DNA of 64,000 nucleotides, from the NCBI GenBank assembly GCA_963844965.1, contig CAWJQC010000004.1:41609-105608 (forward strand), read 5' to 3'. Below the pieces are notes generated by a model. That model was not told where the DNA came from. It did not search any database and worked only from the letters and a program-made list of their open reading frames with translations. Below are positions 16,756 through 46,375 of this stretch, piece by piece. The position numbers and the translations under genes were made by a program. Numbering within the stretch: the first letter of the stretch is position 1; each line of letters begins with the position of its first letter. This DNA comes from an uncultured bacterium (lineage in GTDB: Bacteria; Patescibacteriota; Minisyncoccia; UBA6257; 2-01-FULL-56-20).

Positions 16756-17215
16756 TCACTCTATCTTAGTAATCTGGTATACAATCTGTCCCGCCGGCGC
16801 GTTAACGGTCACGCTGTCGCCGACTTTCCTGCCGATGAACGCTCTGCCGAGCGGCGATTCGTCGGAAATCTTTCCTTCCTCCGGCTTCGCTTCATAAGAA
16901 CCGACTATCGTGTAACGCGCAATCTGATTCTCCTTTCTTGGCGAAAACCGTGGAGCAGACGCCAACTTTCTCCGCTCCTTCTGTCTTCTTTATAATCACC
17001 GCTTTTTTCAGAAGTTCCTCCAGATCAAAAATCCGCGTCTCAACGAGCGCCTGCTCTTCCCTCGCCTCCGCGTACTCGGAATTTTCCGAAAGGTCGCCGT
17101 ATTCCTTCGCGTGACGCAAACGCTCCGCGATTTCCGCGCGTTTCGTATTTTTCAGAACGTCAAGTTCCTGCTTCAATTCCTCAAGACGTTCTTTTGTTAA
17201 GTAATATCTGTCCAC
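16756..17215 (-). CDS. greA: transcription elongation factor GreA; single-base frameshift near 16945
   Basis: N-terminal coiled coil with GDLSENSEYAEAREEQ in one frame. C-terminal ENQIARYTIVGSYEAKPEEGKISDESPLGRAFIGRKVGDSV in the adjacent frame. An extra base sits in AAGAAAGGAG. Confidence 0.7.
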
Positions 17216-18276: not shown

Positions 18277-19038
18277 TCAAATCTTGGTTAGTATTCTTGT
18301 TCCCTGTTCTGTTATAGCAACCGTATGTTCCCAATGAGCGGATGGTGAGCCGTCGGCGGTGATAAAACTATCGTCGGCGAGCTGCTTTGTCGCCCCGGAG
18401 CCCATCGCTACCATCGGCTCAATCGCGAGCACCATTCCTGGCACAAGTTCTTCGCCTTCGCCTTTGCGGCCAAAATTCAGAACTTGCGGCTCTTCGTGAA
18501 GGTCGCGGCCGATACCGTGACCCGTGAGCGAACGAACGACCGAGAAACCATTTTTTGTCACGAACTTTTCAATAGCACAACCGATGTCCCCCACCATTTT
18601 TCCAGGCCTCGCTTCCGCAATACCAATATTAAGTGCTTCTCTCGTGACGTGAATTAATTTCTGTGCTTCACGGCCGATAGCGCCAACGGGAACGGTAATC
18701 GCCGAATCGGAATAAAATCCCTTGTATTTTAGTCCCAAATCCAATTTAAGAAGATCGCCGCTCTTCAGCGCGTAATCCGACGGCAACCCGTGCACGACAA
18801 CGTCGTTCAGGGATGCGCAAATCGTAAATGGATATGGCTTTTCGGAGCCCGCTGGTCGGTAACCCAAAAACGCCGGCTCGGCTCCAGATTCTTTTATCAG
18901 CTTCTTCGCCAATTTGTCCAAAAAAATTGTGGTGACGCCCGCGCGGACCTCTTTCCTAAGCGCCTCAACAACCGAAGCGAGCCGCTGCCCAGCCTCGGCC
19001 ATGATTTCAACCTCAGCGGGAGTTTTTATGGTGGTCAT
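18277..19038 (-). CDS. map: methionine aminopeptidase type I
   Basis: Pita-bread fold motifs (VVHGLPSDYALKSGDLLKLDLG, HGIGRDLHEEP). Confidence 0.9.
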   Translation of the reverse strand: MTTIKTPAEVEIMAEAGQRLASVVEALRKEVRAGVTTIFLDKLAKKLIKESGAEPAFLGYRPAGSEKPYPFTICASLNDVVVHGLPSDYALKSGDLLKLDLGLKYKGFYSDSAITVPVGAIGREAQKLIHVTREALNIGIAEARPGKMVGDIGCAIEKFVTKNGFSVVRSLTGHGIGRDLHEEPQVLNFGRKGEGEELVPGMVLAIEPMVAMGSGATKQLADDSFITADGSPSAHWEHTVAITEQGTRILTKI

Positions 19039-19793
19039 TACGAAAACAAAACCCGATAAAAGTCCACTGAGCCGGCGGAGGCCTTCCTCACGGTGGTTTT
19101 TCTGCCGATGCCGCGCGTTCGCAGCATAATCGTACCAATTATCTTGTTGAGCACTTTATATGGCGCGGCTCTGGCGTTAATAACTTCCAGGTTGTAACCC
19201 AATTTATCCAAAATATTGAAAACCGGCTCGGTGCGATTCTTATACTCCTTAAGACGTACCTTGATCACCTCCGGTTTATCCAATGAACGTCTGTAAAAAT
19301 TTCCGCCGCACACGGGGCAATACCTCGGCTTAACCTTGGGGTAATATTTCGCAAGCAGCGTGTAGCCGCAGGATTTACACACCATGCGGGCGCCGTTTCT
19401 CTTGATTGAATATTCTGCCGGCAGCCGCAACTCAAAAATAAATATATTCTCCCGGCCATAAAGCCGATCCAAAATCGGCATAAGCCGCTCGCCTTCGTAA
19501 ACGGTGCGCGGCGAGCCGCTGAAAGCGACGCCGAATCCCGCCTGCGCGATCTTCGTGACCGCGTTCGCCACCTCGCGCGAAACAAAGCTCGGTGTCATCA
19601 AAATCCCGCCATCAAAAAGTTTCCGCTCGCGCTTTACAATTTTTTCTTTCTGCCGCGCCTGGTCGTGCACAACCGATTCCAAAAATTTTCCCGTGTCAAA
19701 ATGAATCAGGTTCAGTTTTTGCGCCAATAAATTCGCCTGTGTTCCCTTACCCGAACCCGGCGGCCCGTAAATTATAATGGCGATTTTTTTCAT
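19038..19793 (-). CDS. adk: adenylate kinase with Zn-finger LID domain and a C-terminal extension
   Basis: IIIYGPPGSGKGTQ P-loop; CKSCGYTL..CPVCGG LID. Confidence 0.85.
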   Translation of the reverse strand: MKKIAIIIYGPPGSGKGTQANLLAQKLNLIHFDTGKFLESVVHDQARQKEKIVKRERKLFDGGILMTPSFVSREVANAVTKIAQAGFGVAFSGSPRTVYEGERLMPILDRLYGRENIFIFELRLPAEYSIKRNGARMVCKSCGYTLLAKYYPKVKPRYCPVCGGNFYRRSLDKPEVIKVRLKEYKNRTEPVFNILDKLGYNLEVINARAAPYKVLNKIIGTIMLRTRGIGRKTTVRKASAGSVDFYRVLFS

Positions 19794-19915
19794 CCCGTTA
19801 GAGACAGGGAACGCTTCGCCAGTTAGACGAACCGCTATCTGTCATTATTATTTTTGATAAATGAAGTTGGTTTGTGTAAATTAAGCGTCCCCGTAGCGAA
19901 GCGGTCTCTAACGGG
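19794..19915 (-). promoter_or_regulatory. long-range stem-loop leader ending immediately at the adk start codon
   Basis: CCCGTTAGAGAC (19794-19805) and GTCTCTAACGGG (19904-19915) are perfect 12 bp inverted repeats with nested CGCTTCG/CGAAGCG. The 3' arm directly precedes the ATG. Confidence 0.4.
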
Positions 19916-20004
19916 ATTCATGCACTTGAAACAATTCTAACACAAGATGCCCCTGCAATTTAAGGGGGATTTATGCACAGCAAATCGGCACACGCCATGT
20001 CGCG

Positions 20005-20035
20005 ACAAACAAAAACCCCGATTCTCATCGGGGAT
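20005..20035 (-). terminator. rho-independent terminator after the P-loop NTPase gene
   Basis: Minus strand reads CCCCGAUGAGAAUCGGGG followed by UUUUUGUUUG. Confidence 0.5.
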
Positions 20036-20040
20036 GCAAA

Positions 20041-20679
20041 CTATTCCGGCTCAATACCAAGAACATCGCAAACGGCGCAGAAAAGGCGCTCTTTCTTCTT
20101 TTTGAAACCTGTAGAATTATCAATTACCGTCAAATTTCTGTGTGGTCGCCAACCGGCGAGAATGCGCCGATCCAAAGCGCGGGCTTTTTTAGGGGTCTCG
20201 TATCTCACTTCGTTGCTTTTATTCCCATAATGCTTCTCTGCGCCCAACGCGGCCGTCACAAGGTGTATCACGGCGTCGTATCTCGTATAGATGTCGTGAA
20301 GCAACATTTCCTTGTCTTTCAAAATCTTTTCCAATGAAACTAGACCGTCGTATCCAACCCGATCGACGATTCCACGATCGCACAAGATTACTATATTTTC
20401 ACGGGGCAAGGTTTTTGCCAAAACCTCAGTCCCGTCTTCAAGGGCTAGTTGCAAATCAACAATATATCTCCCCATAAGGAAAGAGGTGTGTGAATCTTCC
20501 GCAACAATTCTCTTTATGTCGTATGCGCCCGTGCCTATACCGAAAAGGATGGTTGCAGCTTCCGGAACGAGCAATGGTTGCCAACCAGCCGCCTTCAACT
20601 TTCTAACGACGTACTTTATTCCCAGCGTTTTTCCCGAACAAGGCCCACCGGTAATGGCAATCTTTATAATCCTTCCCAT
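20041..20679 (-). CDS. P-loop NTPase (AAA_28/NadR-like nucleoside or nucleotide kinase fold)
   Basis: Walker A IAITGGPCSGKT near the N-terminus; about 210 aa soluble protein. Confidence 0.45.
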   Translation of the reverse strand: MGRIIKIAITGGPCSGKTLGIKYVVRKLKAAGWQPLLVPEAATILFGIGTGAYDIKRIVAEDSHTSFLMGRYIVDLQLALEDGTEVLAKTLPRENIVILCDRGIVDRVGYDGLVSLEKILKDKEMLLHDIYTRYDAVIHLVTAALGAEKHYGNKSNEVRYETPKKARALDRRILAGWRPHRNLTVIDNSTGFKKKKERLFCAVCDVLGIEPE

Positions 20680-20836
20680 TTGCGACCTCCCGGAAGATAA
20701 TTTCAATTTCGCTGCCTAAAATATATCAGAACCTTAAAATTTGTGCAACAAAAAGTTTTGTATGGTAGCGGTCAATGGACAACAACGTAGGAATGATTTA
20801 GAATTTAGTCAGCATCACAAAATACGGGAGGTGGCA

Positions 20837-21193
20837 ATGGCTACTAAGAAAAAATTCAGATTGACGAAGAAAGAGCGCACAAAACGGAATCCGAAAGGAA
20901 AAATTTCCCGCCGAATTGCCGAATTGCGCCGGAAATTTAAAAAATTTTCAAAGACGCCTACAGACAACGTGTCTATTCGTTCCTTGGTTCGCTCTAATAT
21001 TAAGCGCAAGATTAAGATGCTGAACGACCACCTGAAGGGCAAGATTGATATTTTTGCCGAGATTGCGAACGAAAAACCCAAGACCGAAGTTCTGCGTTCG
21101 GCAGAGCAGCAATTATCTTTAGCTCAAATCAGGGTAGACACGCTCAAGAAAGAATTGCAGAGAATTGTCTGGCTCAAAGATTTGGTCGGTTAG
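20837..21193 (+). CDS. hypothetical Lys/Arg-rich coiled-coil protein; opposite strand to its neighbours
   Basis: GGGAGGTGGCA precedes ATG 20837. MATKKKFRLTKKERTKRNPKGK... Confidence 0.4.
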   Translation: MATKKKFRLTKKERTKRNPKGKISRRIAELRRKFKKFSKTPTDNVSIRSLVRSNIKRKIKMLNDHLKGKIDIFAEIANEKPKTEVLRSAEQQLSLAQIRVDTLKKELQRIVWLKDLVG

Positions 21194-21379
21194 ATGTGGA
21201 ATTTACCAGACAAAATAACGGCGCCCCCTCGGCGCCGGATTTTTTTCGGCAGTTGCACATGCTTAGTTATCTAAATTTTCCCAATGCGGAGGCCATTGCC
21301 TCTCAAAAAAGAAAGGGCCGGATTATCCATCCGGACCCTGCGGCCTGCCGTGGCCGCTTCAAACCGGTCTCGCCCCGCC

Positions 21380-21814
21380 TCATTTGCCAACTTTCGGAGT
21401 GACGTCAGCCGCCGGAACGGCAAACTTGATCTCTTCTATGTCGCTGCCAAAGTCAGTACCAAGGTTATAGACAAACCTACCAACACATACCTGCTCTCCG
21501 ACTACCATCTTCAACCCTGGTTTAACAGGAACAGAACGGATCCTGTCACGCTGACTCTTGATTGCGACCCTGTCGAGGCCGAGGACCCCATCAGGTATCA
21601 CCTTCACGACGGTATAACGATAATCGTCAATGCCCTTGACATAGATGCGCAGGGACTCCCGACTGACGAGATCAATGTCTTTTTGTTCGCGCAACGCTTC
21701 TTGCTTGACGACATCGCGGGCGTGATCGTAGGCGGGTTGAGTTGCCCTCCAAACGATTCCCGCCAGAAGCAATACCGCAGAAATTAATAAAGCGACCGTA
21801 AAGTTCTTCCCCAT
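21380..21814 (-). CDS. hypothetical membrane-anchored protein (single N-terminal TM)
   Basis: MGKNFTVALLISAVLLLAGIVW... 144 aa. Confidence 0.4.
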   Translation of the reverse strand: MGKNFTVALLISAVLLLAGIVWRATQPAYDHARDVVKQEALREQKDIDLVSRESLRIYVKGIDDYRYTVVKVIPDGVLGLDRVAIKSQRDRIRSVPVKPGLKMVVGEQVCVGRFVYNLGTDFGSDIEEIKFAVPAADVTPKVGK

Positions 21815-22144
21815 GTTTCTTCCCTCCGATTTGAGATACCCAACCAGAAAAAGCTGGGCTATAAGACCGAAAACTAGATTGTGCAGAACTACTTATATGT
21901 TAGCATATAGTCAATAATAAGTCAAGTGCTTAAAAACGCTTGATTTTGTTGGCTAAAACGTACTTCGCCCTGCTATCAAGAAAGCGCACGGAGATTCTTC
22001 GCATGGCTCAGAATGACACCGGCTCTTTATAAAAAATCCGTTTTGCGCCAGCAAAACTCCTTATTTCCTACAGCATTGAGGGATGTTTCTTTGGAACCAG
22101 AAGCGGAGGCCGCGCAAAAATGAATGAGTGCGGCGAAGATTTTT

Positions 22145-22176
22145 AAAAGCCGATTTTGCCGTGAGGCAAAATCACC
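22145..22176 (-). terminator. rho-independent terminator downstream of secY
   Basis: Minus strand reads GAUUUUGCCUCACGGCAAAAUC followed by GGCUUUUAAAA. Confidence 0.5.
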
Positions 22177-22292
22177 TTAAGCACTCGCAGAAGTTTTTGT
22201 TTCGCGAGGGTGTATCGCAGGAGCGAAGGCGACGAGATGCAGCGCGTTTTCAGCAGAAAACGACGCGACCATCGCGAAATAAAAACTGGAGC

Positions 22293-23564
22293 TACTCGAT
22301 GCCCTCGTATTCGCGAACCGTCAGCTGCGAATCCACCTGCCTCATTGTCTCCAAGCGCTACCGCGACAACGATCAGAAGCGCCGTGCCCGAAATATTCAG
22401 GACCTGGACGCCGGTAAAGCGCTGGATGACGAGCGGCAAAACCGCGATCAAACCCAGAAACGCTGCGCCGAAAAACGTGATGCGGTTAACGATACCGGAA
22501 AAGAATTGGGTGGTCGCCTCGCCGGGCCGGATACCCGGAACGAATCCGCCACCCTTCTGGAGATTTTTGGCGACCTCTTCCGGATTGAACGTAATGGCGG
22601 TGTAGAAATATGTGAAAATGAAAACCAGGGCGAAGTAGAAAATTCCGTAAAAAATCTGATTGTTCAAAAACGCCGTCACGAAGCCGTTTATTTTAAGCGC
22701 GAGACTCGGAGAAAAAATGGTCGCGGCCTGAGCGATGAACTGCGGGAACAGAAGGACCGAGATCGCGAATATCAAGGGAATCATTCCGGCCTGGTTCACC
22801 TTGAGCGGTAGATAGCTTTGCGCGCCGCCATACATTTTCATGCCGCGAACCCGCCGCGCGTAGGCGACGGGAATTTTCCGTTCTCCCTCGTTCAGATAAA
22901 CCACGCCGGCGATAAGCAAGACGGCCACTACAACGAAACCGATATACGTCGGCAAAAGCGCCGGCTGATACGAAAGAAGCGCGAGTCCGAAAGACGAAGG
23001 CAGACGGCTCACGATACCCGCTAAAATTATGAGCGATATGCCGTTCCCCACCTTCTCTTCGCTTATAAGTTCTCCGAGCCACAAGGCGAGCATGGAACCC
23101 GTAACGATTACCACGACGTTCCTTATCATACTGAAAGGATCCGGCCTGTCTATGACGTTCTGGGATATGAGGAGCGTCAAAAATCCGTAAGCCGAAACGA
23201 CGGCCAGCGGCACGGTTATGAAACGCGAGTAGCGGTTGAACTTCGCCTGGCCGCGGGCTCCTTCCTCGTAATACATCTGCTTAAACTTCGGGAAAATAAT
23301 CGTGAGAAGCTGCATGATGATCGTAGCCGTGATATATGGTCCAACGCCAAGCATGACAACGGACATGTTCACAAGTCCGCCGCCCGAGAAGAAATTCAAA
23401 AATCCTAAGAGCTGATTGGAGTTGAAATAATTCTGAAGTCTAAGCGCGTCCACCCCCGGAATAGGTATCGCGGCCAGGAGCCGGTAAGCGATCAAAAACA
23501 GTGCGACCTTCAAAATTTTGTTGCGAAGGTCCTTGATTTTAAAAATTTGGAGGAATCTGTTCAT
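22293..23564 (-). CDS. secY: preprotein translocase SecY; C-terminal single-base frameshift. The ORF as sequenced runs to 22143; the corrected frame ends at the TAG at 22293-22295
   Basis: Ten-TM SecY fold. After ...VAVAL the frame reads ALGDNEAGGF... junk. The +1 frame gives ETMRQVDSQLTVREYEGIE*, the canonical SecY C-terminus. An extra G sits in CTTGGAGAC. Confidence 0.85.
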
Positions 23565-27229: not shown

Positions 27230-27599
27230 TTATACAATTTCTTCGGCCATCGTCATTAATTTTTCAAAACCTTTTTCCTTGAGCTCGCGCGGTAAAGGAC
27301 CGAAGATCCTGGTCGCTATCGGTTCCTTCTTGGCGTCAATCAGCACAACCGCGTTCTCGTCAAAACGCACGTAAGAACCATCCAAACGCCTTATGGGACT
27401 CTTTCGTGCGCACGATGAGCACCCGGACGATGTCCTTTTTCTTCACGGTTTTTCTGGGCTCGGCGACCTGAACGGAGGTCACGATAACGTCACCCACACC
27501 TCCATATCTCCTGCGCGTTGCTCCCAAAATTCTAAAGCAACGGACGATTTTCGCGCCGGAATTATCAGCAACCTTTAAAATACTCCTTTCTTGTATCAT
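27230..27599 (-). CDS. rplN: 50S ribosomal protein L14; single-base frameshift near 27355
   Basis: [43 protein letters not shown]...VRTK in frame 1, then [41 protein letters not shown] in the next frame. An extra A sits in ACGAAAGAG. Confidence 0.8.
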
Positions 27600-28148: not shown

Positions 28149-28560
28149 TTATTTACTAATGACCTTGCTTTTGAACGGCAGTTTATATCCGGCGAGGCGC
28201 AGGGCTTCCTTTGCCATATCCCCGTCCACGCCGTCTATTTCAAATATAACCCGACCGGGCTTCACGGGGAATACGTAGTGGTCAACGCTTCCTTTCCCGC
28301 CGCCCATGGTGGTTTCCGGCGGCCGCATGGTGACCGGCTTATCCGGGAAAACGCGTATCCAGAGCCGGCCGCTGCGCTTCAAGTGATTCGTAATGGTTTT
28401 CCTCGCAGCTTCAATCTGCTTGGAATTCAACCACGACGGCTCAAGCGCCTTCAGACCGTACTCGCCGTAATTCAACCCCAAACCGCGCGTTTCCACCGGC
28501 GCGCTTGCGCGACCTGCCCTTTTGCCACTTCCTATGTTTTACTTTTTTGGGAATCAACAT
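28149..28560 (-). CDS. rplP: 50S ribosomal protein L16; single-base frameshift near 28480
   Basis: ATG at 28558-28560 gives [25 protein letters not shown]. The downstream frame gives [30 protein letters not shown]... An extra T sits in CGGTTTGGGG. Confidence 0.8.
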
Positions 28561-30274: not shown

Positions 30275-31087
30275 TTAATTATAAGTTTTGCTCGACCATT
30301 TTTTCTTATTGCGGGTCTTGTGCCCGCCGGTAACCTTACCCCACAACGTTTTTGGTTTTCTCGTGCCGCGCGGCTGTCTGCCCTCGCCGCCGCCGTAGGG
30401 ATGATCAACCGGATTCATGGCTGTGCCGCGGACGGTCGGCCTCACGCCAAGCCAGCGCGAGCGGCCGGCTTTTCCTATTGTAACCAAATTATGCTCGGGA
30501 TTGGAAAGTTGTCCGATGGAAGCGAAGGAGTTCCAGGAAACCCTTCGTATCTCGCCGGAGGACAACTTCAGGTCCGTATAGCCATCGGCGTTCGCGAGGA
30601 CCTCCACGTAAGAACCGGCGGAACGGGCCAGCTTCCCGCCCACGCCCGGCTTCAATTCTATATTATGTACTTGGTAGCCAACTGGAATATTCTTCAATCT
30701 TAACCTATTTCCGATTTTAAGAGGCGCGGTATCGGACGTCACGATGGTATCCCCGACCGCGAGCCCCTGAGCCGCGAGAACGTAGCGGCGCTCGCCATTG
30801 GCGTATAAAACCCTGGCGATGAATGTGGTTCTGTAAGGATCATATTCCAAAGTTTCAACCTTGGCCGGCATATCCGGGAATTCGCTCTGCACGAAATCTA
30901 CCATCCTGTACAGCTTTTTGTGACCGCCGCCCTGATGGCGCACCGTGATTCTTCCCTGCGAGTTCCTGCCCGCGTGGTCCTGAAGGCGCCTAAGCAGCGG
31001 CTTATACGGTTCTGTTTTTGTAAGCGCACCATAATCGGGTACCGTCATCTGCCTGCGTCCCGGAGTTGTTGGCTTGTAAGCTTTCAT
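30275..31087 (-). CDS. rplB: 50S ribosomal protein L2
   Basis: GRNSQGRITVRHQGGGHKKLYR...GAGSYVEVLANADGY... Confidence 0.9.
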   Translation of the reverse strand: MKAYKPTTPGRRQMTVPDYGALTKTEPYKPLLRRLQDHAGRNSQGRITVRHQGGGHKKLYRMVDFVQSEFPDMPAKVETLEYDPYRTTFIARVLYANGERRYVLAAQGLAVGDTIVTSDTAPLKIGNRLRLKNIPVGYQVHNIELKPGVGGKLARSAGSYVEVLANADGYTDLKLSSGEIRRVSWNSFASIGQLSNPEHNLVTIGKAGRSRWLGVRPTVRGTAMNPVDHPYGGGEGRQPRGTRKPKTLWGKVTGGHKTRNKKKWSSKTYN

Positions 31088-31094
31088 CGGAAAA

Positions 31095-31370
31095 TTATTG
31101 TATGTCTATTTTTTGTCCGGCCTTAAGCGTCACAATCGCTTTTTTGTATCCAGATTGTTTGCCGCGCAGGGCGCCGACGCGCTTATGCTTGGCCGGGCGA
31201 TTGACGATATTGACTGCGACCGCATCGGCTTTGTAAATTTCTTTCACCGCTTTTTTGATCTCCGGCTTGGTGGCGTCATTCCTCACGAGAAAAACGTATT
31301 TGCCGAACTTGGACAAGTCGGTCGCTCTCTCTGTCACCCACGGTTTTTTTATCAAAAATACGCTGCTCAT
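31095..31370 (-). CDS. rplW: 50S ribosomal protein L23
   Basis: KPWVTERATDLSKFGKYVFLVRNDATKPEIKKAVKEIY. Confidence 0.85.
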   Translation of the reverse strand: MSSVFLIKKPWVTERATDLSKFGKYVFLVRNDATKPEIKKAVKEIYKADAVAVNIVNRPAKHKRVGALRGKQSGYKKAIVTLKAGQKIDIQ

Positions 31371-32011
31371 GATTTGTAACGTTTACCCATAATTTCAACG
31401 GCTTTTCTGTCCATGAAAATATTCTTATAGTTCAAAATGTCGTAGAGATTCAGCGACTCCGGAGGAACAGTTTTTGTCTTGACCAAATTCCGCGAGGCGC
31501 GCGCCAAATTTTTGTTTTCTTTGTTCGCGACAAGAAGTAGATCAAATTTTTTATCCTTCTTTTTCAAGTTCAAAACCGGCGCGAGCGCCGCGGCAAGAAC
31601 CTTGGTTTTCGGCCGCTCCACGTTCAAATCTTCAAAAATCCTCACGTCATTGTCTTTGAGTTTGCGCGAGAGCGCGCTCACGAGAGCCAGACGCTTCATT
31701 TTCTTGTTTATCTTCTGCGAATAATCGCGCAACTTGGAAGGTCCGTGCGCCTTGCCGCCGCCAACCCACAACGGCGAGCGGATAGAGCCATGCCTCGCGC
31801 GCCCCGTTCCCTTCTGCCGCCACGGCTTTCTGCCGCCGCCTCGGACTTCGGCGCGGGTCTTTGCGTGCGCCCACGGGCGTCTGGCGTTCGCAAGCTGGGC
31901 AACCAAAACCTGTTGCACAAGCTCCGGATTCCACTTCACGCCAAAAATCTTGTCGGGTAGTTCAATCTCGCCGACCACCTCGTTTTTTAAATTATAAACC
32001 GCGGCTTTCAT
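31367..32011 (-). CDS. rplD: 50S ribosomal protein L4
   Basis: RRPWAHAKTRAEVRGGGRKPWRQKGTGRARHGSIRSPLWVGGG. Confidence 0.9.
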   Translation of the reverse strand: MKAAVYNLKNEVVGEIELPDKIFGVKWNPELVQQVLVAQLANARRPWAHAKTRAEVRGGGRKPWRQKGTGRARHGSIRSPLWVGGGKAHGPSKLRDYSQKINKKMKRLALVSALSRKLKDNDVRIFEDLNVERPKTKVLAAALAPVLNLKKKDKKFDLLLVANKENKNLARASRNLVKTKTVPPESLNLYDILNYKNIFMDRKAVEIMGKRYKS

Positions 32012-32012
32012 T

Positions 32013-32564
32013 CTATTTTCTATTTTCTATTTTCTGTACTTCCAAAATCCCTCCCCTCGCTCCGGGAACCGCTCCCTTTATAAAAAGCAATCCGTTCTCT
32101 TTATCAACGCCGGCGACCTTCAAATTTTTTACCGTCACGCGCTCGTCGCCCATGTGGCCGGCCATGCGGTGGCCCGGCGTAACCCGCTGGGGCGCGGTGC
32201 TGCCGATGGAACCGCCGGCGCGGAAACGGTTTTTCTGTCCGTGTGTTTTCGGTCCGCCGGCGAAACCATGGCGCTTGACGACACCAGCAAAGCCACGTCC
32301 CTTCATCGTGCCCGACACGCGCACCACATCACCTTCCTTGAAAGCATCAACCTCTATTGCGTCACCAACTTTAAATTTCTCGCTTTCGGTTCTGAATTCC
32401 CGCTTTTGCTTTCCGAGAGCGAGCTGAACGGCTTCATATCCGTCCCGTTCGTTAGTGCGAACAAAAGTTACCTTATTCGGCTGCGCGCGAAGCACCGTCA
32501 CGGGCACGACGGTTTTGTCCTTCCAAATCTGGGTCATCTTCAATTTTTTCGCCAGGATAAACAT
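32013..32564 (-). CDS. rplC: 50S ribosomal protein L3
   Basis: MTQIWKDKTVVPVTVL... GRGFAGVVKRHGFAGGPKTHGQ. Confidence 0.9.
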   Translation of the reverse strand: MFILAKKLKMTQIWKDKTVVPVTVLRAQPNKVTFVRTNERDGYEAVQLALGKQKREFRTESEKFKVGDAIEVDAFKEGDVVRVSGTMKGRGFAGVVKRHGFAGGPKTHGQKNRFRAGGSIGSTAPQRVTPGHRMAGHMGDERVTVKNLKVAGVDKENGLLFIKGAVPGARGGILEVQKIENRK

Positions 32565-32765
32565 AACTTAATAAAAATCCGCCCAAGCACACCCGGGCGG
32601 TCCGGCTGTCCTTGTGAAAACGTTCTTAATTATTGTCCAGAACGTCCATTAAAGAGACAAGCTAATACTACGCCGGAATGCCTGGAACGTCAATAGCACC
32701 CCCTCCACAAGCAAAATCGGCCTGATTTTGCCGCCTTGCCTTCTAAAATGTCGGTAAAATAAAAA

Positions 32766-32790
32766 GCCGGGCCGTTAGAACTTCAGCCCG
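32766..32790 (-). terminator. rho-independent terminator between the inserted module and rplC
   Basis: Minus strand reads CCGGGCUGAAGUUCUAACGGCCCGG followed by CUUUUUAUUUU, immediately after the stop of the 32800-33903 gene. Confidence 0.55.
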
Positions 32791-32799
32791 GCAACTTGC

Positions 32800-33903
32800 T
32801 CACCGAAGAATGAAACGTCCCGGTTTGCTTGAGTAATCAGAGAAGAAATTCGCATACGGGAAACGCAGAACACCATAGCCGTGCGTCACGCTTTTTGAGA
32901 CGAACGCGGGCCTTTCTCGTTTCCATCGCTCATACTCTTCTTCCTTGAACAGCACGACGCGTAGCGGATTGCGCGATTCATCAATAACGGCAGGAAGAGC
33001 AAACTCCCAAAACGCCATGTCGTCCTGTTCGTCGCGCGTGAAGAGCGAACGAACGTCGGCGATATCGCCTTCGGCCCAGAACGCGAATCCGCCGCAGGAA
33101 GTCAAATATATTCTCTCCAACTCTTTCGGCCGAATACCCTCCAACTTCAACAAATCAAATCTGTTACAAACAGCCAAAGGCTTTAACCGAGAATAGTAAA
33201 AAAGTTGTCGCGCTTCCTTTCTTACACATTTGGCAAATATGTCCTCGATGTAGGCGGCGAGGAACGGGAGCTCGTGACTAATGTCGGCATCAAAACAGTT
33301 GACCGAATGTTCAACCGGCAGGGCGTATTTCCAAATGCTCGGAATCGTTTCTTGGAGAATGGCAAGTGTGTCCGGCACCGACCCGCCGATAGTACTGAGA
33401 GAATTGAGGCCGGGAACCGTTTCGCCGTGTATGAAGTGCCGGTGGCAAACCGACACATACCGGAGATATATACCCATGCCGTCGCTGTGCATGAATTCCA
33501 GAAGACGCAGGGTTTTTTCCGGCGCGAACATAACGAGCACGCATTTCTTCGTTTTCTCAATCGGCACCGTTTCGCCGGGCAGTACGTGCCCTTTATCCCC
33601 GAGCGCGCGGAGAAGTTCTTCGGCGGCTTCATCGCAACCGTCACGCCGGAGCTGGGCATAAAAATCGGCGAGAACGCGCGCATCGCTGAAAAGTCCGTTA
33701 AGTTCGTTCAAAAACGCGGTTGGGGTGTCGGCTTTATCGGCGATATTTGCCAACGTTTCCGTCATAAATCCGAGTTTGCCGCGCCTTCGCCCAAACACTT
33801 TATGGCCGGCGAGTTTCTGAAATAACCGGTCAAATTGCTGTCCACGAAGAACCGTCTTTCCTTCAGGCACCTGTTTCATGGGAACCTCCTTGTTCCGAAA
33901 CAC
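32800..33903 (-). CDS. hypothetical cytoplasmic protein (367 aa); first upstream gene of the module inserted in the S10 operon
   Basis: Intact ORF with no TM; Cys/His-containing segment ...YLRYVSVCHRHFIHGETVPG...; no family assigned. Confidence 0.45.
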   Translation of the reverse strand: MFRNKEVPMKQVPEGKTVLRGQQFDRLFQKLAGHKVFGRRRGKLGFMTETLANIADKADTPTAFLNELNGLFSDARVLADFYAQLRRDGCDEAAEELLRALGDKGHVLPGETVPIEKTKKCVLVMFAPEKTLRLLEFMHSDGMGIYLRYVSVCHRHFIHGETVPGLNSLSTIGGSVPDTLAILQETIPSIWKYALPVEHSVNCFDADISHELPFLAAYIEDIFAKCVRKEARQLFYYSRLKPLAVCNRFDLLKLEGIRPKELERIYLTSCGGFAFWAEGDIADVRSLFTRDEQDDMAFWEFALPAVIDESRNPLRVVLFKEEEYERWKRERPAFVSKSVTHGYGVLRFPYANFFSDYSSKPGRFILR

Positions 33904-34082
33904 ATCTGAAGCAACACTTCCTGGGAAATGCCTATTCGTCTGCCTTTCAGCAGACCGTCTCCTGGGAAACGTGGATTAGCGCATTTTCAAAGAACATGCA
34001 CCGAACAAATCATAAGCAATGCGGACTTCTAAGTCAAGCGCATCGTAGATGCGGCCGACACCGAAAATCTTCCGTTCCCAAT

Positions 34083-35000
34083 TTACTGTGCCACCATAAG
34101 CGTCCTCCTTATTGAGTCAAACTGATTAAGCAATGCCGTGCGGTCAAATTCATGGACAACGCCAGGCGGATAGTTATAAATATCCGTGGAGTGTATGAGA
34201 TAGCGCACCGCGAGGCAGGGATTTGTGCCGGGAACGGCCCAGACTTGTTCTTCGTAAAAATTGCCCGCCGCCCCTTCGGTCGTCGTAGCAACGGAATACT
34301 CCGCGCCGCCGTCGGTCACATTCTCTGCGACCAGATTTTGCCGGTCAAGAAAAGGAAGCGCGCTGCAATCCTTTATGTTCGGAGTTTCTTCAACCGACAC
34401 GCCCGTGTCGTAGTGTGAAAGATTGGTACCGGTCGCCATCGCGGCGGGAATAACAAATTTGACGCCGCTGATATCCTTGCCCGGGCCGAGTTCCTGATAC
34501 TTATACGAAGCGTCAACGGAGTAGCCCACGGGATAACGTATGGAAAAACCCGCCGTTCCGCTTGCGTAAGTTTGCGGCAAACCGCCCGAGTCTGGCGCAA
34601 GCACAATACAGCCAACGTAATTTTTCTCTTCGTTATTCTCAAAAACGAGCGCGCCGTTGCCCTTGCCCCAGAAAACGAACGACTCGTCACTGTTGGCGTA
34701 ACGTATTCCGTCCGCCGATATTGTTTGCGGCAAAGTGAATCTGCGCCCGTCGCTTAAAACCAAGGCAACGCTCCCACCGGGAACCGGCGGCTCGCCGGGC
34801 TTTACGGGCGGCGGAGTTCCCTTGTAAAAACTTGCGTCAATCGTCTTTCCGCCATTGCACAGATAGGTAACTTCATTGATAGGCGCGGGCGCCGCGGACT
34901 TTTCCGGCGCGCCGCGGCGGGCGTACCAAAACCACACGCCAAAAAACACCAAGATGACCGCGAGCACCGCAAACAATATTTTAATATTCCTAAATTCCAT
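34083..35000 (-). CDS. membrane-anchored protein with MliC-like (lysozyme-inhibitor-type) N-terminal domain plus unknown C-terminal domain
   Basis: TM anchor MEFRNIKILFAVLAVILVFFGVWFWY, then VTYLCNGGKTIDASFYKG...LVLSDGRRFTLPQTISADGIRYANSDESFVFWGKGNGALVF (MliC/PliC-like pattern). Confidence 0.45.
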   Translation of the reverse strand: MEFRNIKILFAVLAVILVFFGVWFWYARRGAPEKSAAPAPINEVTYLCNGGKTIDASFYKGTPPPVKPGEPPVPGGSVALVLSDGRRFTLPQTISADGIRYANSDESFVFWGKGNGALVFENNEEKNYVGCIVLAPDSGGLPQTYASGTAGFSIRYPVGYSVDASYKYQELGPGKDISGVKFVIPAAMATGTNLSHYDTGVSVEETPNIKDCSALPFLDRQNLVAENVTDGGAEYSVATTTEGAAGNFYEEQVWAVPGTNPCLAVRYLIHSTDIYNYPPGVVHEFDRTALLNQFDSIRRTLMVAQ

Positions 35001-35098
35001 GATTTTAGTTTTTAGAAACGCCCGATCCGATAAGCACAGGTGGCACTCTGTGGAGATAGCGAGAGGCACCAGTTGCAACTTCGCCAAACCAACCGCCG

Positions 35099-35410
35099 TC
35101 AGCTGTAAGCCAAAATGATAAACACAATCGCGACGATTACGACGAGGAACGTAATGGTTGCCGCAACAAGATTTATCGCTTCCCTTTTTTTGCCGTTAAA
35201 GTACCAAAGAATCGGCCGGCCGAAGATAACAATGCCCATTACAGCCGCGGAAATCACAAAAACAAGAAGAAACGCCGAGACGACCAGCACCCCGCCCCCG
35301 GGACCGAAAACGTGGTTCGCGTTTGAAATCAAAAGAGCGACGAGCCCCACGTAGGCCGCGGCGGCAAGCGCGTTAAGCAAGCCGTAGCCGATTATTCGTT
35401 TTGTTTTCAT
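35099..35410 (-). CDS. small integral membrane protein (3 TM, 103 aa)
   Basis: Hydrophobic profile; ORF tightly packed between neighbours. Confidence 0.4.
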   Translation of the reverse strand: MKTKRIIGYGLLNALAAAAYVGLVALLISNANHVFGPGGGVLVVSAFLLVFVISAAVMGIVIFGRPILWYFNGKKREAINLVAATITFLVVIVAIVFIILAYS

Positions 35411-35422
35411 TGTATAGAAATA

Positions 35423-36814
35423 TTACTGCTGGCATGCCTGGCCCGTCAGCCACGGTCCACTCGTGGCGTTGGGATCGTATGGCACGAGCGGCACTACGCA
35501 CGACCAGGAAAGGCCAGTGGATTTGAGCACGATTTTGCTATCGCTTCGGTCCGTTATTACGCTACGCAGTCCGATGGTAATTGTCGGGTCAACGCCGGAA
35601 ATGCCCATGCGGTGCACCCCCAATATTTCAATCGGGAGCATTCTCTGGGTGGTTGGTCCTAATGGGAAGGAAAACGGAACGTTAATGTTCTCTCCGCTGT
35701 GCGTGAAGGGAATAGATGGGTCAGCCGCCAGATTTTCCAGGTGATAATCGGTTGACGGATCATCAGCTACGCGCAAAACCAGCGGCGAATCGGCGACATT
35801 CAAAGCCGTGTAAGAAATATCAACGTTTAGTCCGGTAATCGTAATCTGGTTGGAATCTATATTGTTGAAAACAAGACCACCATTGTCCGTACTTTCCTGA
35901 AGCACGGTGCTCATGGCCGACGGCGAAGTGACGATCAGTTGGCCGGGGTCGGTCGTAAAGGAAAAATTTTTGGACTGAACCCGCTGGTCGTTTCCGGAAG
36001 TCTGAGCCAAACCGATGGCACAAGCGTATGAAGTTCTCACATCGAACATCGGATTTTGGTCGGTATCGTCGGAAGACGGGATATTCGGCGGCGGATTGCA
36101 GGAGAACGAAACGAAAAAACGCGGCACCGAACCGCTGCCGCCGATGGAAGTTTCGTCCAAACCCCATATTACACTGCTTTTTGTGCCTGCGAACGTGGTA
36201 AATTTTGCTTCGTATGGGCCGTCAAACCGTTCGTTCAAAGAAAGCGTGGTGGCGTCCAAAAACGTCCGCGCCGTAATTACCGCCGGGACGGAAGCGGCGG
36301 CTGTTGTCGGGGTCGTAGCGGATTTTGCCTGCGCTCCGGCCTTTTTACTTGTAGTTTTCCCACCGGACTGGGTGGTCGCGGCGGCCGTCGTGGCGGTCGT
36401 TGTGGAAAACGGCACATCCACGCTTGGCAATAGTCCCGCCACAATCTCCGTCTGTGCATCCAAACTCGCGACGCTTGAGGTGGCAACGCTTGAAGTAGCC
36501 GTGGAAGTTGAGAACGCAATAACACTTTGCATCATGGCAATCTCTTTCGGGACGCCTACTGCCATGCCCAGGCGTGCCTGCATGCCCATAACTTCAATCG
36601 TCTGTTTATAGGAAACAATTTCCGTCAAAGTTTTCGCCGCGAAAACTCCTCCGAAGAGGATTGCCGCGAGCCCGACAAGAAAAGGAACTCTCGTGCTGAA
36701 CAACTTCAAGATTTTTCCGGAGATATTTCCGCCGCCCAAAAAAATGGCCTTGAAGCCGCCGGGTCTGGCGGGCTTTTCACGGCGCACAATATCTTGTACG
36801 CGCCTGTTATTCAT
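35423..36814 (-). CDS. membrane-anchored extracytoplasmic protein with Ser/Thr/Ala-rich linker and Cys-containing C-terminal domain (463 aa)
   Basis: N-terminal TM (VPFLVGLAAILFGGVFAA), low-complexity STTTATTAAATT linker, C-terminal beta-rich region with paired Cys. Confidence 0.45.
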   Translation of the reverse strand: MNNRRVQDIVRREKPARPGGFKAIFLGGGNISGKILKLFSTRVPFLVGLAAILFGGVFAAKTLTEIVSYKQTIEVMGMQARLGMAVGVPKEIAMMQSVIAFSTSTATSSVATSSVASLDAQTEIVAGLLPSVDVPFSTTTATTAAATTQSGGKTTSKKAGAQAKSATTPTTAAASVPAVITARTFLDATTLSLNERFDGPYEAKFTTFAGTKSSVIWGLDETSIGGSGSVPRFFVSFSCNPPPNIPSSDDTDQNPMFDVRTSYACAIGLAQTSGNDQRVQSKNFSFTTDPGQLIVTSPSAMSTVLQESTDNGGLVFNNIDSNQITITGLNVDISYTALNVADSPLVLRVADDPSTDYHLENLAADPSIPFTHSGENINVPFSFPLGPTTQRMLPIEILGVHRMGISGVDPTITIGLRSVITDRSDSKIVLKSTGLSWSCVVPLVPYDPNATSGPWLTGQACQQ

Positions 36815-37109
36815 TTGACGTATTGTTATATATTACCTCAGGACGCGTGGGGATTCAAACGTAGGCAAAATCGCAGTTTTGTTGCGGCAGGGCAAATCAC
36901 CCGGAGCGCTGAAGGATTAAAAAACAAAGCCGCAACCACGACTGTTCACTTTTTATGAACAATCATTTTATCGCTTGTTAAAAATTGAAACTGCCGACCG
37001 TGGATACAAAAATCTTTCAAAAGCCCGAAAAGAAAACACCCCGAAAACGAATTGGCTTTCGGGGCGACTTGTTAGAAAAAAACAGGAGTCAGGATTCTAT
37101 TCTCTGGTT

Positions 37110-37554
37110 TCAATTGAGGCCCGTTGCGGCAAGAAGTGTGCGGCGAATCACCGAATCGTGTCCCATCTCATTGTATGTGGCCGCCTCTATACGCCTCTCC
37201 AAAACAGCAGGAAGCCCAAGTATTTCTTTCTTGACCTCCCGTTCGGCAGAGCTCGCCACACCTTCCGTAATCATCGCGTATACCGCAGTCAACGGATAGT
37301 AGTCATTTTCCGCGGTGATGATGACACCGAGCGGCGTCAGCTTCCATCGGTGGGGTCTTTGCGCAGATACTCAAGAATACGCTGTAGTCGTAGATATCGC
37401 GCCCCAACAGTGCGCCGAAGAACAGCAACAAAACACCCTGAATTCCTACGACCACGTGATGACCTTGTATTTGATCTTTTGAAAAAAGAGCGAAAGCGGT
37501 GCATATTCCACCAAACACCAGCAGCACGACAAGCGATGGCTTAGCGCCCTTCAT
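37110..37554 (-). CDS. small two-TM membrane protein, probably frameshifted (two adjacent ORFs 37303-37554 and 37110-37292)
   Basis: MKGAKPSLVVLLVFGGICTAFALF...GVLLLFFGALLG in one frame. ...GVIITAENDYYPLTAVYAMITEGVASSAEREVKKEILGL... continues in the next frame. Confidence 0.3.
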
Positions 37555-37826
37555 ATACCCCCCCTTCCTCTTTTTTATCTTTGGCCTATCCAGCTGGCCT
37601 CAACCTAACACAGCGAAAGTTATTAGTCAAATGCGGCGGCTTTTTATAACTTGCGCGCTGATCACGGCAAAAATCTGCCGCCGGCCGGGAATGCGGGGGT
37701 TTAAACGAGGTCCAGCTGGTCCTCGGCCACAGGGTTTTAGAAAACCAATTCAAAACTGCCCTTTCCTGCGCTTCGCCGAAGGCTTCGGCAAGGCGAGCGG
37801 GCGGTGGTGAAAAAAATTACCTAGTT

Positions 37827-38174
37827 CTATTTGCCGTCGGCGCTGCTGGCCGGAAACTCGGAAGACGCGTCTCCGTCGTTCATCCATTGCCAAATTTCGG
37901 CTCGGCGCTTTTCGGCGCCGGGAAACACGTCATCGGGTATGGCAATACGCCGCAATTCTTCTTCGGTCAAGCTGCTGAGGTTAACCGACGAGGGGTCTTT
38001 GCCTAAAAGAGATTTGAGCGTTTTAAGGCTCGCTTTTATCCGTTTCGGGGCGAGAGCGTCCTTATTCCACAACTCTGAATCTTTTCTAATTGCGTCCAAA
38101 TTTTCGTGCGCCAGGGCGATCCTGTCGTTCCTGGAGAGTTCGTTCCCGCCAATCTTATCTGCAGGTTCTGGCAT
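37827..38174 (-). CDS. hypothetical cytoplasmic protein (115 aa); first gene after rpsJ
   Basis: ORF only; acidic C-terminus. Confidence 0.4.
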   Translation of the reverse strand: MPEPADKIGGNELSRNDRIALAHENLDAIRKDSELWNKDALAPKRIKASLKTLKSLLGKDPSSVNLSSLTEEELRRIAIPDDVFPGAEKRRAEIWQWMNDGDASSEFPASSADGK

Positions 38175-38287
38175 AAATTTATATTACAACAATTTAATTT
38201 CTAAGTCCAAGCCCTGAATTAACAGAGAAATTCAAAACCGCCTTTTCGGGCGGCTTTGTTTCTGCGTAATTCCGCGTAGTTCCGCGC

Positions 38288-38618
38288 TTAGACCATTTTG
38301 ATTTCCACATCTACGCCAGCCGGTAAATTCAGATTGCTCAGCGATTCCACGATTTTCTGACTGGGATTCAGTATTTCCACGAGGCGCTTGTGGACGCGGA
38401 GCTCAAACTGCTCGCGCGAGTCCTTGTGGACGAATGTTGAACGATTTACGGTGTAGCGCTTAATCTCGGTCGGCAGCGGAATCGGCCCTACGATGCGCGC
38501 GTCCTGCCTCTCGGCGGCTTCAATAATTTGCCGCGCCGAATTATCAATCAGCTTGTGATCTGTATGACTTGATTCTCAGCCTGATTTTTTGCGGAAGGTC
38601 CGCTACTTTTTTGGCCAT
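38288..38618 (-). CDS. rpsJ: 30S ribosomal protein S10; single-base frameshift near 38555. Missed by the ORF track
   Basis: [19 protein letters not shown] then, after a shift, [64 protein letters not shown]...GVDVEIKMV. Confidence 0.75.
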
Positions 38619-38929
38619 TATTTTTTCCTATTGAGGGAATTCATCCGGATGTTCGTCCTCGTATTTTTCAAGAAGTCCGTTGTACAGATTTATATCCCTT
38701 TCGAGTTTGGAGCAGGATTCAAGCTCCCAGTGCCCGATATCCCCTTGACGGGACGCCGCTGGCTCGCCACTTCCGCAAATTGGCTCTCTAATCGCTTAAC
38801 CAGGGCTTTCAGTTTTTCGTAGTCCTCGTGATTTTGAGGCGGATTTTTCAACCAGCTCCTGTTGTCAAAGTTAGTTTCTTTTTCCTCACCAAGCTAATTT
38901 TGGATTCACTGCGATTTTTTTCACCCATA

Positions 38930-40132
38930 TTATTTCAGTATCTTAGTCACCGCTCCTGCGCCGACCGTCTTGCCGCCTTCGCGGATGGCAAAACGCTGTT
39001 TTTCTTCAAGCGCGACCGGGAAATGAGTTTCACGGTGAGTTTAACGGTGTCGCCCGGCATGACCATTTCCATGCCTGCCGGCAAGGGTCACTTCGCCCGT
39101 AACATCGGTCGTCCTGATATAGAACTGCGGCTTGTAGCCGTTGAAGAACGGCGAGTGGCGGCCGCCTTCCTCTTTTGAAAGCACGTAAACCTCGCGCTCG
39201 AATTCCGTGTGCGGCGTGACGCTGCCCGGCTTCGCGACAACCTGCCCGCGCTCCACGTCTTCTTTCTTCAGGCCGCGGAGCAGAACGCCGACGTTGTCGC
39301 CCGCCATGCCTTCGTCCAAGAGTCTTATTGAACATTTCAATGCCCGTGACGACGGTCTTCTGCCGTCGGCCTGCAGGCCGACGATCTCCACTTCTTCGTT
39401 CACTTTCACCTTGCCGCGCTCCACGCGGCCGGTCACGACCGTGCCGCGTCCTTCAATCGAGAAGATGTCTTCGATCGGCATAAGGAACGGCTTGTCGAAG
39501 TCGCGGACCGGATCGGGAATGAATGTCATCCACCGCTTTGATAAGGTCCAAGATCGGTTTCGCGTCCGGGTCGTCGGCGATTTCGCGGCCAACGCTTTCA
39601 AAGCCGAACCGCGGATGATCGGAGTCGTGTCGCCCGGGAATTCGTATTTCTTCAAAAGCTCGCGGACTTCGGACTCAACGAGATCAATGAGTTCCGGATC
39701 GTCCACCTGATCGCACTTATTAAGAAACACGACGATGGTCGGCACGCCGACCTGGCGGGCAAGCAAAATGTGCTCGCGCGTCTGCGGCATCGGGCCGTCG
39801 GTCGCGGCGACGACCAAAATCGCGCCGTCCATCTGCGCGGCGCCCGTGATCATGTTCTTGATATAGTCGGCGTGTCCCGGCGCGTCAATGTGCGCGTAGT
39901 GGCGCTTCTCGGATTCGTACTCCGAATGGTGCAGGGCGATCGTGATGCCGCGCGCCTTTTCCTCCGGAGCGTTGTCAATTTGGTCCACTCTCTCTTCTTT
40001 CTTCGTCAGACCCTTCAAATGCAAAACGTGCATAATCGCGGCGGTCAGGGTCGTCTTGCCGTGGTCAACGTGGCCGATCGTGCCGATGTTCATGTGCGGC
40101 TTGGCCCGGTAGAATTTTTCTTTTTCAGCCAT
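38930..40132 (-). CDS. tuf: elongation factor Tu; at least four compensating single-base indels (1203 nt = 401 codons overall)
   Basis: [18 protein letters not shown] and NKCD motifs are intact. Out-of-frame islands: [22 protein letters not shown] should be [21 protein letters not shown]; the C-terminus is restored as [20 protein letters not shown]...[29 protein letters not shown] in alternate frames. Confidence 0.8.
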
Positions 40133-46124: not shown

Positions 46125-46222
46125 AACAATAATATCCGAAAACCGCGGTCTTTGCCAATTAAGAAAAAACAAATTAAAATGAGCATGTCGCCCTCGTGGT
46201 GAAACTTGCCCTCCCACCTTTG

Positions 46223-46294
46223 TCCCTGTAGCTCAACGGATAGAGCGTGTGGCTTCGAACCACAAGGTTGCAGGTTCAAATCCTGCCAGGGACG
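46223..46294 (+). tRNA. tRNA-Arg (anticodon UCG), embedded between perfect 13 bp inverted repeats
   Basis: GUCCCUGUAGCUCAACGGAUAGAGCGUGUGGCUUCGAACCACAAGGUUGCAGGUUCAAAUCCUGCCAGGGACG. Flanks are CCCTCCCACCTTT / AAAGGTGGGAGGG. Confidence 0.85.
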
Positions 46295-46327
46295 CAAAGG
46301 TGGGAGGGTGAAGATATCATATGTGGC

Positions 46328-46375
46328 TTCGAACCACAGGTTCCAGGTTCGAGTCCTGGCGAGGGCACACACAAC
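46328..46375 (+). other. partial duplicate of the tRNA-Arg 3' half (anticodon arm through acceptor), att-like repeat
   Basis: UGUGGCUUCGAACCACAGGUUCCAGGUUCGAGUCCUGGCGAGGGCA lies 33 nt after the intact tRNA. Confidence 0.5.

Follow-up and report, generated by a model that had tools for sequence, protein, structure and literature searches.

Genes and transcription signals between rpsJ and rplC

We examined a 64,000-nucleotide (nt) stretch of the genome of an uncultured Patescibacteriota bacterium (assembly GCA_963844965.1, contig CAWJQC010000004.1, positions 41,609 to 105,608; the whole stretch is called the window below), in which the ribosomal protein genes rpsJ (S10) and rplC (L3) lie 5.7 kb apart. 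rpsJ (38288-38618) is the last gene of an upstream tuf-rpsJ unit (tuf, 38930-40132), and rplC (32013-32564) is the first gene of the large ribosomal protein operon that runs on through rplD, rplW, and rplB. These genes are on the minus strand, and so are the genes, promoters, and terminators between them. The intervening segment holds six open reading frames (ORFs): g1 (37827-38174; 115 amino acids, aa; soluble), g2 (37303-37554; 83 aa, with two transmembrane, or TM, helices), g3 (35423-36814; 463 aa), g4 (35099-35410; 103 aa, three TM helices), g5 (34083-35000; 305 aa, Pfam MliC), and g6 (32800-33879 or 33903; 359 or 367 aa). An initial annotation, made from the sequence alone, had described six same-strand genes separating rpsJ from rplC, among them a TM-anchored protein with a Ser/Thr-rich linker and a Cys-containing ectodomain and an MliC-like protein; both the arrangement and the gene descriptions are confirmed here.

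The segment is punctuated by predicted transcription signals. An intrinsic terminator lies 30 nt 3′ of rpsJ (38223-38258, stem 38258-38233; CAAAGCCGCC-CGAAAA-GGCGGUUUUG and then AAUUUCU), with a fold z of -4.68. A strong intrinsic terminator with a 12-bp stem and a U-run closes g1-g2 (37027-37066, stem 37066-37037). g6 has a promoter-like site before it (34009-34037; TTGACT-17-TATGAT, 10 of 12 matches) and an intrinsic terminator after it (32757-32792, stem 32792-32766; GCCGGGCUG-9 nt-CGGCCCGGC and then the U-run UUUUUAUUUU), the latter already noted in the initial annotation. Finally, a sigma-70-type promoter precedes the rplC operon (32665-32693; TTGACG-17-TAGTAT), with its -35 element at 32693 and its -10 element ending at 32665. 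Judged by these signals, the segment appears to hold at least three separately punctuated units: g1-g2, g3-g4-g5, and g6.

Similar signals recur in related genomes. A terminator is found within 110 nt of rpsJ in 30 of 63 relatives, and a promoter match of at least 10 of 12 positions is found within 320 nt upstream of rplC at 43 of 77 loci, compared with one of 77 when the control region inside the rplC-rplD coding sequence is searched. On the predicted signals, then, this is not a classical S10 operon, in which rpsJ is directly upstream of rplC and cotranscribed with it. The proposal that the six genes ride on the rpsJ promoter is likewise not supported, because of the terminators (30 nt after rpsJ and, with its 12-bp stem, after g2) and the promoter-like sites (before g6 and before rplC) in the segment and their counterparts in relatives.

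The reading frames of several conserved genes in this assembly are disrupted. The rpsJ frame is broken by a 1-base insertion near 38561, beside a GATC, and is hence not listed as one ORF; the repaired protein matches S10 in 60+ loci at 50%-94% identity. tuf contains at least six frame switches, in compensating pairs, and rplN (27360-27599), rplP (28149-28496), and greA (16756-17215) also appear broken. The frameshifts hit essential conserved genes, and long lineage-specific ORFs are intact. From the disrupted frames of these five genes we conclude that the assembly contains indel errors; the frameshifts look like consensus errors rather than biology, and the ORF limits, those of g2 above all, are to be taken with this in mind. 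The rplC side of the segment has an independent copy: a Logan short-read contig (run ERR10755942, L001) equals window positions 30769-34587 at 99.97% identity, so that the junction running from g5 and g6 through the terminator and leader into rplC is reproduced in a second assembly.

Variation at the rpsJ-rplC boundary in relatives

We used tblastn to place S10, L3, L4, and EF-Tu in every locus retrieved and defined as close relatives those with an L3 protein at least 60% identical to that of the window (n = 30). In a scan of species-representative genomes, the best L3 matches are metagenome-assembled genomes (MAGs) of Paceibacteria/Parcubacteria, at no more than 73% identity. The genome that contains the window is itself a MAG of the Paceibacteria (Patescibacteria).

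The distance between rpsJ and rplC is 18-244 nt in 13 loci from outside the Patescibacteria. Among the 30 close relatives it ranges from 85 to 4602 nt, with a median of 1032 nt, and is at least 700 nt in 23; the 5.7 kb of the window is at the large end of this range. Insertions comparable to that in the window are present in many relatives, including complete chromosomes. Seven Patescibacteria loci have neither rpsJ nor tuf within 9-12 kb upstream of rplC, and the initial statement that S10 and L3 are adjacent in essentially all bacteria is thus too strong. The tuf-rpsJ distance, unlike that between rpsJ and rplC, remains tight in most loci. In the window the tuf-rpsJ intergenic region (38619-38929) is 311 nt, which exceeds that of most relatives, and its short ORFs (e.g., 38690-38851, 53 aa) have no family match; this spacing is also expanded, to ~1.0-2.6 kb, in three relatives (L010, L019, and L026).

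The gene content of the gap varies as much as its length. Almost none of the gap ORFs of relatives is related to another or to any of g1-g6 (81 singletons), and some are on the opposite strand. Those with a Pfam match encode a MazF/PemK toxin (L010, 5507-5905), LiaF-like membrane proteins, a VanX-type M15 dipeptidase, a Ddl fragment, HisG, an IS481-type transposase (L004, 7218-8237), a reverse transcriptase (RVT_1; L052, 7307-8353), a methyltransferase, an EamA transporter, and an APH-like kinase. Since both gap length and gene content differ among relatives, we regard the rpsJ-rplC boundary as a variable slot. In the synteny comparison that the initial annotation had proposed as a check on lineage specificity, a variable gap is found across the lineage, and what it contains is unrelated from genome to genome. 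The suggestion that the segment is inserted into, or splits, an operon is not supported; in this lineage the boundary already falls between operons, with predicted terminators after rpsJ and promoters before rplC.

The nearest relative, L082 (L3 81% identical), carries only g3 and g4 before rplC, together with a leader of another type.

A conserved leader precedes rplC

The regions upstream of rplC sort into at least two conserved types. The window belongs to the type that we call A, an 87-nt leader (32571-32657) that ends in a predicted terminator/attenuator (32600-32579 plus a U-run) placed 7 nt before the ATG of rplC. Its elements are, in order, a helix P1 (UCUUU/AAGGA), an internal loop, a variable hairpin P2, a linker AYAGCC, the terminator, and the U-run. 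The initial annotation had predicted a separate structured leader in front of rplC, and in this it was right; the hairpin it quoted (CAAAAUCAGGCCGAUUUUG, 32730-32712) is a different structure. This hairpin (in full, GCAAGGCGGCAAAAUCAGGCCGAUUUUGCUUG, 32708-32739) is flanked by the g6 terminator and the rplC -35 element and is not part of the leader, because it is upstream of the rplC promoter. A 248-nt fold of 32553-32800 that pairs the promoter region with the terminator was rejected, since the transcript does not include the promoter region.

From six type A sequences we built a covariance model, which detected four further instances among the genome loci, each of them preceding rplC. Scanning metagenome contigs with a sequence pattern returned 29 loci, of which 20 match the model and 20 of 20 are directly before rplC; the nine pattern hits that fail the model (E ≤ 0.01) all lack an L3 gene. 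In total, 27 of 27 instances are directly upstream of rplC on the same strand. In the alignment of 26 distinct sequences, 93.1% of cells are paired and compensatory changes occur in 13 of 24 pairs, figures to be read with the retrieval in mind: The pattern used for part of the set fixes P1 and the linker, and unbiased covariation comes only from P2 and the terminator. None of 500 shuffled controls was as good, and controls in which the structure was slid along the alignment pair at 36%-59%. A promoter of the form TTGACA-17-TAnnAT ends 7-8 nt before the first model position in 26 of the 27 instances, and this fixed distance indicates that the leader RNA starts at the motif. A search of Rfam 15 across 32400-32900 gave nothing relevant at E ≤ 10.

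The leader can also be folded in a second way. The 3′ strand of P1 together with the linker (AAGGAYAGCC) is able to pair with GGCURKCCUU of the terminator, forming an antiterminator, and this alternative helix accounts for the conservation of the terminator interior. When nascent RNAs lacking the last six stem bases are folded, the antiterminator forms in 25 of 26 sequences, and for the leader of the window the antiterminator and terminator states are within 0.4 kcal/mol of each other. In predicted folds, the element thus has what defines an attenuator, namely, an intrinsic terminator before the first gene and a helix that is mutually exclusive with it. Like ribosomal protein leaders it also has a constant place in the 5′ untranslated region of a ribosomal protein operon and a structure supported by covariation. 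From these models, the type A architecture is that of a putative regulated attenuator.

A mechanism can be outlined. The weak P1 helix would be stabilized by a ligand, for which one of the operon's own ribosomal proteins is the likeliest choice (by analogy with Escherichia coli, L4); stabilized P1 would sequester AAGGA and so block the antiterminator, and the terminator would then halt transcription 7 nt before rplC. Without ligand, the antiterminator would form and the operon would be read through. It is also conceivable, although we think it unlikely, that the leader senses a small molecule or something else that is not a ribosomal protein, or acts as a constitutive partial terminator. The motif is small, Rfam holds no similar family, and L4 is proposed as the ligand by analogy only. 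Yet the association with the rplC operon is tight and exclusive (27 of 27), the leaders known from S10/L3-type operons are L4-responsive (PMC3616713; see also the L4-Archaeoglobi candidate, PMC7247131), and the conserved alternative pairing favors a regulated switch over a fixed terminator.

A second conserved leader, type B, occupies ~150-220 nt upstream of rplC in loci L004, L006, L010, L011, L013-L015, L017-L020, L025-L028, and L082. It consists of a near-consensus promoter, AAGGUUUCCUCGGAAGUUUUAUGCC, a GAAGACG...CGUUUUC hairpin, a CCCGC/GCGGG hairpin, and an AACUCCGG...CCGGAGUUUUU terminator, and some loci carry an additional CUGGAUUCC...GGACGAUCAAG element. Rfam has no match in the type B leader loci. 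The MAFFT/RNAalifold alignment of type B is poor in its 3′ half. Since the nearest relative, L082, is type B and the window type A, the block of g5, g6, and type A leader in the one is replaced by a type B leader in the other, which points to recombination spanning the promoter region.

Proteins encoded in the segment

All six proteins are singletons in 90%-identity clusters. g1 had no tblastn match in the 121 loci searched, and g1 and g2, each a singleton cluster, both appear to be orphans without detectable relatives. g2 may be a frameshifted part of a longer gene that continues into the frame at 37110-37373 (in total, 37110-37554).

g3 is a TM-anchored β-sandwich surface protein with a Ser/Thr-rich stalk. 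It has a conserved short cytoplasmic N terminus, one TM helix, a low-complexity Ser/Thr/Pro linker, and an all-β ectodomain of ~280 aa with four invariant Cys residues. There are ~30 homologs at 41%-60% identity, none with a Pfam domain, and the family was not found on viral contigs. The closest homolog (60%) is directly before rplC in L082, where the following gene, of 107 aa, is 71% identical to g4; g5 and g6 are absent before rplC in that locus. Two further g3 homologs are single genes elsewhere in their respective chromosomes. On this comparison g4 would be a conserved small three-TM partner of g3 in the nearest relative.

The MliC assignment of g5 comes from Pfam PF09864, which matches residues 46-125 with 39.1 bits against a cut-off of 22 (E = 7.7 × 10^-10); against the NCBIfam MliC equivalog it scores 21.9, the cut-off there being 168. 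The protein comprises a TM anchor, the MliC domain, and a C-terminal domain of ~170 aa. Its family has more than 1100 homologs of ~300 aa, annotated as "MliC family protein" in Paceibacteria, and the homologs stand alone in unrelated contexts elsewhere in other genomes. Loop motifs of the SxSGAxY and YxxxTKG-like type are the lysozyme contacts of MliC/PliC proteins. In g5, ISADGIRY...FVFWGKG aligns with ISASGARY...YVFWSKG of E. coli YdhA/MliC (PDB 2F09), with two motif positions differing. As a membrane-anchored MliC-domain protein, g5 probably shields the wall from lysozyme-type enzymes.

g6 is a cytoplasmic α/β protein of an uncharacterized family. A word-indexed search found g6 alone, and an ORFan was considered; this was rejected because an exhaustive HMMER search found 247 relatives (cluster representatives). 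There is no Pfam domain in g6 or in those relatives that were checked. The AlphaFold2 model, with a predicted local distance difference test (pLDDT) score of 82, has no significant structural neighbor in the PDB or among the viral models of BFVD. Two g6 homologs stand alone in ordinary chromosomal contexts of Candidate Phyla Radiation (CPR) bacteria.

Searches for defense, phage, and mobile elements

The six proteins gave no PADLOC family, only two weak PHROG matches (E = 0.011 and 0.073), and a single NCBIfam match, the MliC-related one of g5. A defense system was rejected as a candidate on the absence of PADLOC matches, and a phage origin on the weak PHROG matches, the absence of the g3 family from viral contigs, and the lack of a viral fold match for g6. 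No integrase, transposase, or phage gene was found in the segment with Pfam and PHROG; no convincing direct or inverted repeats flank it; and its G+C content (0.47-0.56) resembles that of its surroundings. One 24-nt direct repeat (D3, 83% identical; 37747-37770 and 38229-38252) brackets g1 only. It is the 3′ half of the rpsJ terminator recurring just downstream of g1 and could have arisen by chance or as the trace of an insertion event in the terminator region.

Other features of the window

A second insertion within the normally contiguous ribosomal cluster lies between secY (22143-23564) and adk (19038-19793), which are ~2.3 kb apart; this gap (19794-22142) contains a 144-aa membrane ORF (21380-21814) and a 221-aa AAA_28 P-loop protein (20041-20706). 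In L082 a dCMP/cytidine deaminase gene (6816-7220) lies between rpsC and rplP and is another nonribosomal gene inside the ribosomal cluster in this lineage. The window also contains a divergent RNase P RNA (1493-1902; 100.2 bits against an Rfam gathering score of 100). A partial tRNA-like match (46307-46359; 30.2 bits, model positions 9-63) comes right after tRNA-Arg (46222-46294), and ARAGORN makes no call there.

Discussion

We consider it probable that two independent transcription units are separated here by a variable slot typical of the lineage, and that the segment is this slot rather than a module that entered a functional S10 operon. The tuf-rpsJ unit of Paceibacteria would end at its intrinsic terminator, and the ribosomal protein operon led by rplC would start at its own sigma-70 promoter, followed by a conserved attenuator leader. 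The gap between these two highly conserved anchors would tolerate the gain, loss, and replacement of unrelated accessory genes, probably because the conserved flanks recombine and mobile elements occasionally contribute; flanks as conserved as these would favor homologous exchange. The six genes of the window are best read as a mosaic, in which lineage-common envelope genes relocated to the slot stand beside orphans. g3, g4, and g5 encode envelope proteins. The gene module itself is ordinary accessory content, and the segment is neither a conserved complex nor a recognizable mobile island.

A more inclusive proposal is evenly poised in our judgment: that the 87-nt element represents a new class of ribosomal-protein-sensing attenuator (a switch of three states, P1, antiterminator, and terminator) on the main ribosomal protein operon of Paceibacteria, that among close relatives it alternates with the unrelated and likewise uncatalogued type B, and that it and the rpsJ terminator form the two boundaries of a lineage-wide accessory slot through which envelope genes, toxins, and mobile elements are exchanged.

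Several observations weigh against the variable-slot reading and its leader model. All of the transcription signals are predictions, and since terminators leak, some read-through from rpsJ may occur. The invariance of P1 is partly a retrieval effect, because the retrieval pattern fixes P1 and the linker, and it is by analogy that we infer a ribosomal protein, most likely L4, as the ligand. We infer the route of acquisition from relatives, because neither recombination scars nor mobility genes are visible in the window. The second assembly covers the rplC side only; the rpsJ-side junction is without an independent copy, and the assembly that carries it has indel errors in tuf and rpsJ.

Among the alternatives for the segment as a whole, the one that fares best, improbable as we think it, is a discrete mobile island (an integrative element, a transposon, or what is left of a prophage) that entered the rpsJ-rplC gap by site-specific integration. 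Relatives carry an IS481 transposase, a reverse transcriptase, and MazF at the same site, and repeat D3, downstream of g1, could mark the insertion of that gene. In the segment itself, genes for an integrase or transposase and phage genes are lacking, as are convincing repeats on its flanks; its base composition is that of its surroundings, and neither the g3 family nor the g6 fold has a viral counterpart in the sets searched. Its content looks piecemeal, with g3-g4 shared with L082 and g5-g6 not shared. Of the two origins that the initial annotation had offered for the genes, a captured island comes the nearer, but it would be one without a mobility gene or convincing repeats at its ends.

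The other origin offered, a single surface or defense complex cotranscribed under the rpsJ promoter and hence expressed in step with ribosome synthesis, is very improbable. All six genes are on one strand between highly expressed genes, four of the six encode membrane or surface proteins, and the g3-g4 pair is kept before rplC in the nearest relative. Against this stand the terminators after rpsJ and g2 and the promoter-like sites within the segment, as well as the absence of any PADLOC, PHROG, or NCBIfam defense match. The six genes are not conserved as a unit either: in other genomes the homologs of g5 and g6 and most of those of g3 are solitary genes at other sites, for g1 and g2 no relatives were found, and the rpsJ-rplC site of relatives is occupied by unrelated genes.

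An assembly chimera, which would place the segment falsely between rpsJ and rplC, is scarcely credible in spite of the many indels in tuf, rpsJ, and other conserved genes and of the rpsJ-side junction, for which no second copy was found, since an independent contig reproduces g5-g6-leader-rplC-rplD at 99.97%, L082 has g3-g4-rplC in a different MAG, and insertions at this boundary are the rule in relatives, closed chromosomes included.

The noteworthy results are the lineage-wide split between rpsJ and rplC and the uncatalogued attenuator leader. In a large class of the CPR, rpsJ and rplC appear to be transcribed as parts of separate units, with a probable hotspot of recombination and insertion in between. 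This affects operon models, and it affects the use of the 16-protein syntenic ribosomal block in binning and phylogeny, where S10 may be kilobases away or unlinked. The leader is a well-supported new cis-regulatory RNA for the principal ribosomal protein operon of organisms whose regulation is almost uncharted. Three lineage-specific protein families, those of the g3 surface protein, of the 300-aa protein with an MliC and an additional domain, and of g6, are candidates for the envelope biology of these episymbiotic bacteria.

Comparison with known systems

In cyanobacteria, plastids, and archaea, rpsJ follows tuf in the str operon, separate from the L3 cluster. The arrangement in Paceibacteria is similar in that rpsJ accompanies tuf and the cluster led by L3 forms a unit of its own; it differs in that the two units usually stay neighbors, with the gap between them now a variable slot for accessory genes. 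In hotspots of horizontal transfer, a short interval between conserved core loci accumulates unrelated accessory genes across strains. Unlike such hotspots in general, the flanks here are the two halves of what in most bacteria is a single ribosomal protein operon.

Among the slot genes, g5 resembles MliC/PliC, the membrane-bound or periplasmic inhibitors of c-type lysozyme that include E. coli YdhA, in passing PF09864 and in keeping the ISAxGxRY...FVFWxKG region. It departs from them in its length of 305 aa, in an N-terminal TM helix in place of the lipoprotein signal, and in the added conserved C-terminal domain of ~170 aa.

The S10 leader of E. coli is 172 nt long, has five hairpins, and mediates transcription attenuation that depends on L4 and NusA (PMC3616713). 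Type A likewise is a structured 5′ leader of an operon containing rplC-rplD, with a hairpin followed by an intrinsic terminator that immediately precedes the first gene and, by prediction, with control at termination. Unlike the E. coli leader it precedes rplC and not rpsJ, has two helices and a terminator within 87 nt, offers an explicit antiterminator alternative, and has no Rfam match. The L4-Archaeoglobi ribosomal leader candidate (Eckert and Weinberg 2020, PMC7247131) is an archaeal RNA before rplC-rplD-rplW-rplB for which L4 is the proposed ligand. Its model did not match the window in the Rfam scan. The two RNAs share their position, each being a conserved element upstream of an rplC, rplD, rplW, rplB operon in a lineage in which S10 does not come first; they differ in that type A is bacterial, from Paceibacteria, and ends in a bacterial intrinsic terminator.

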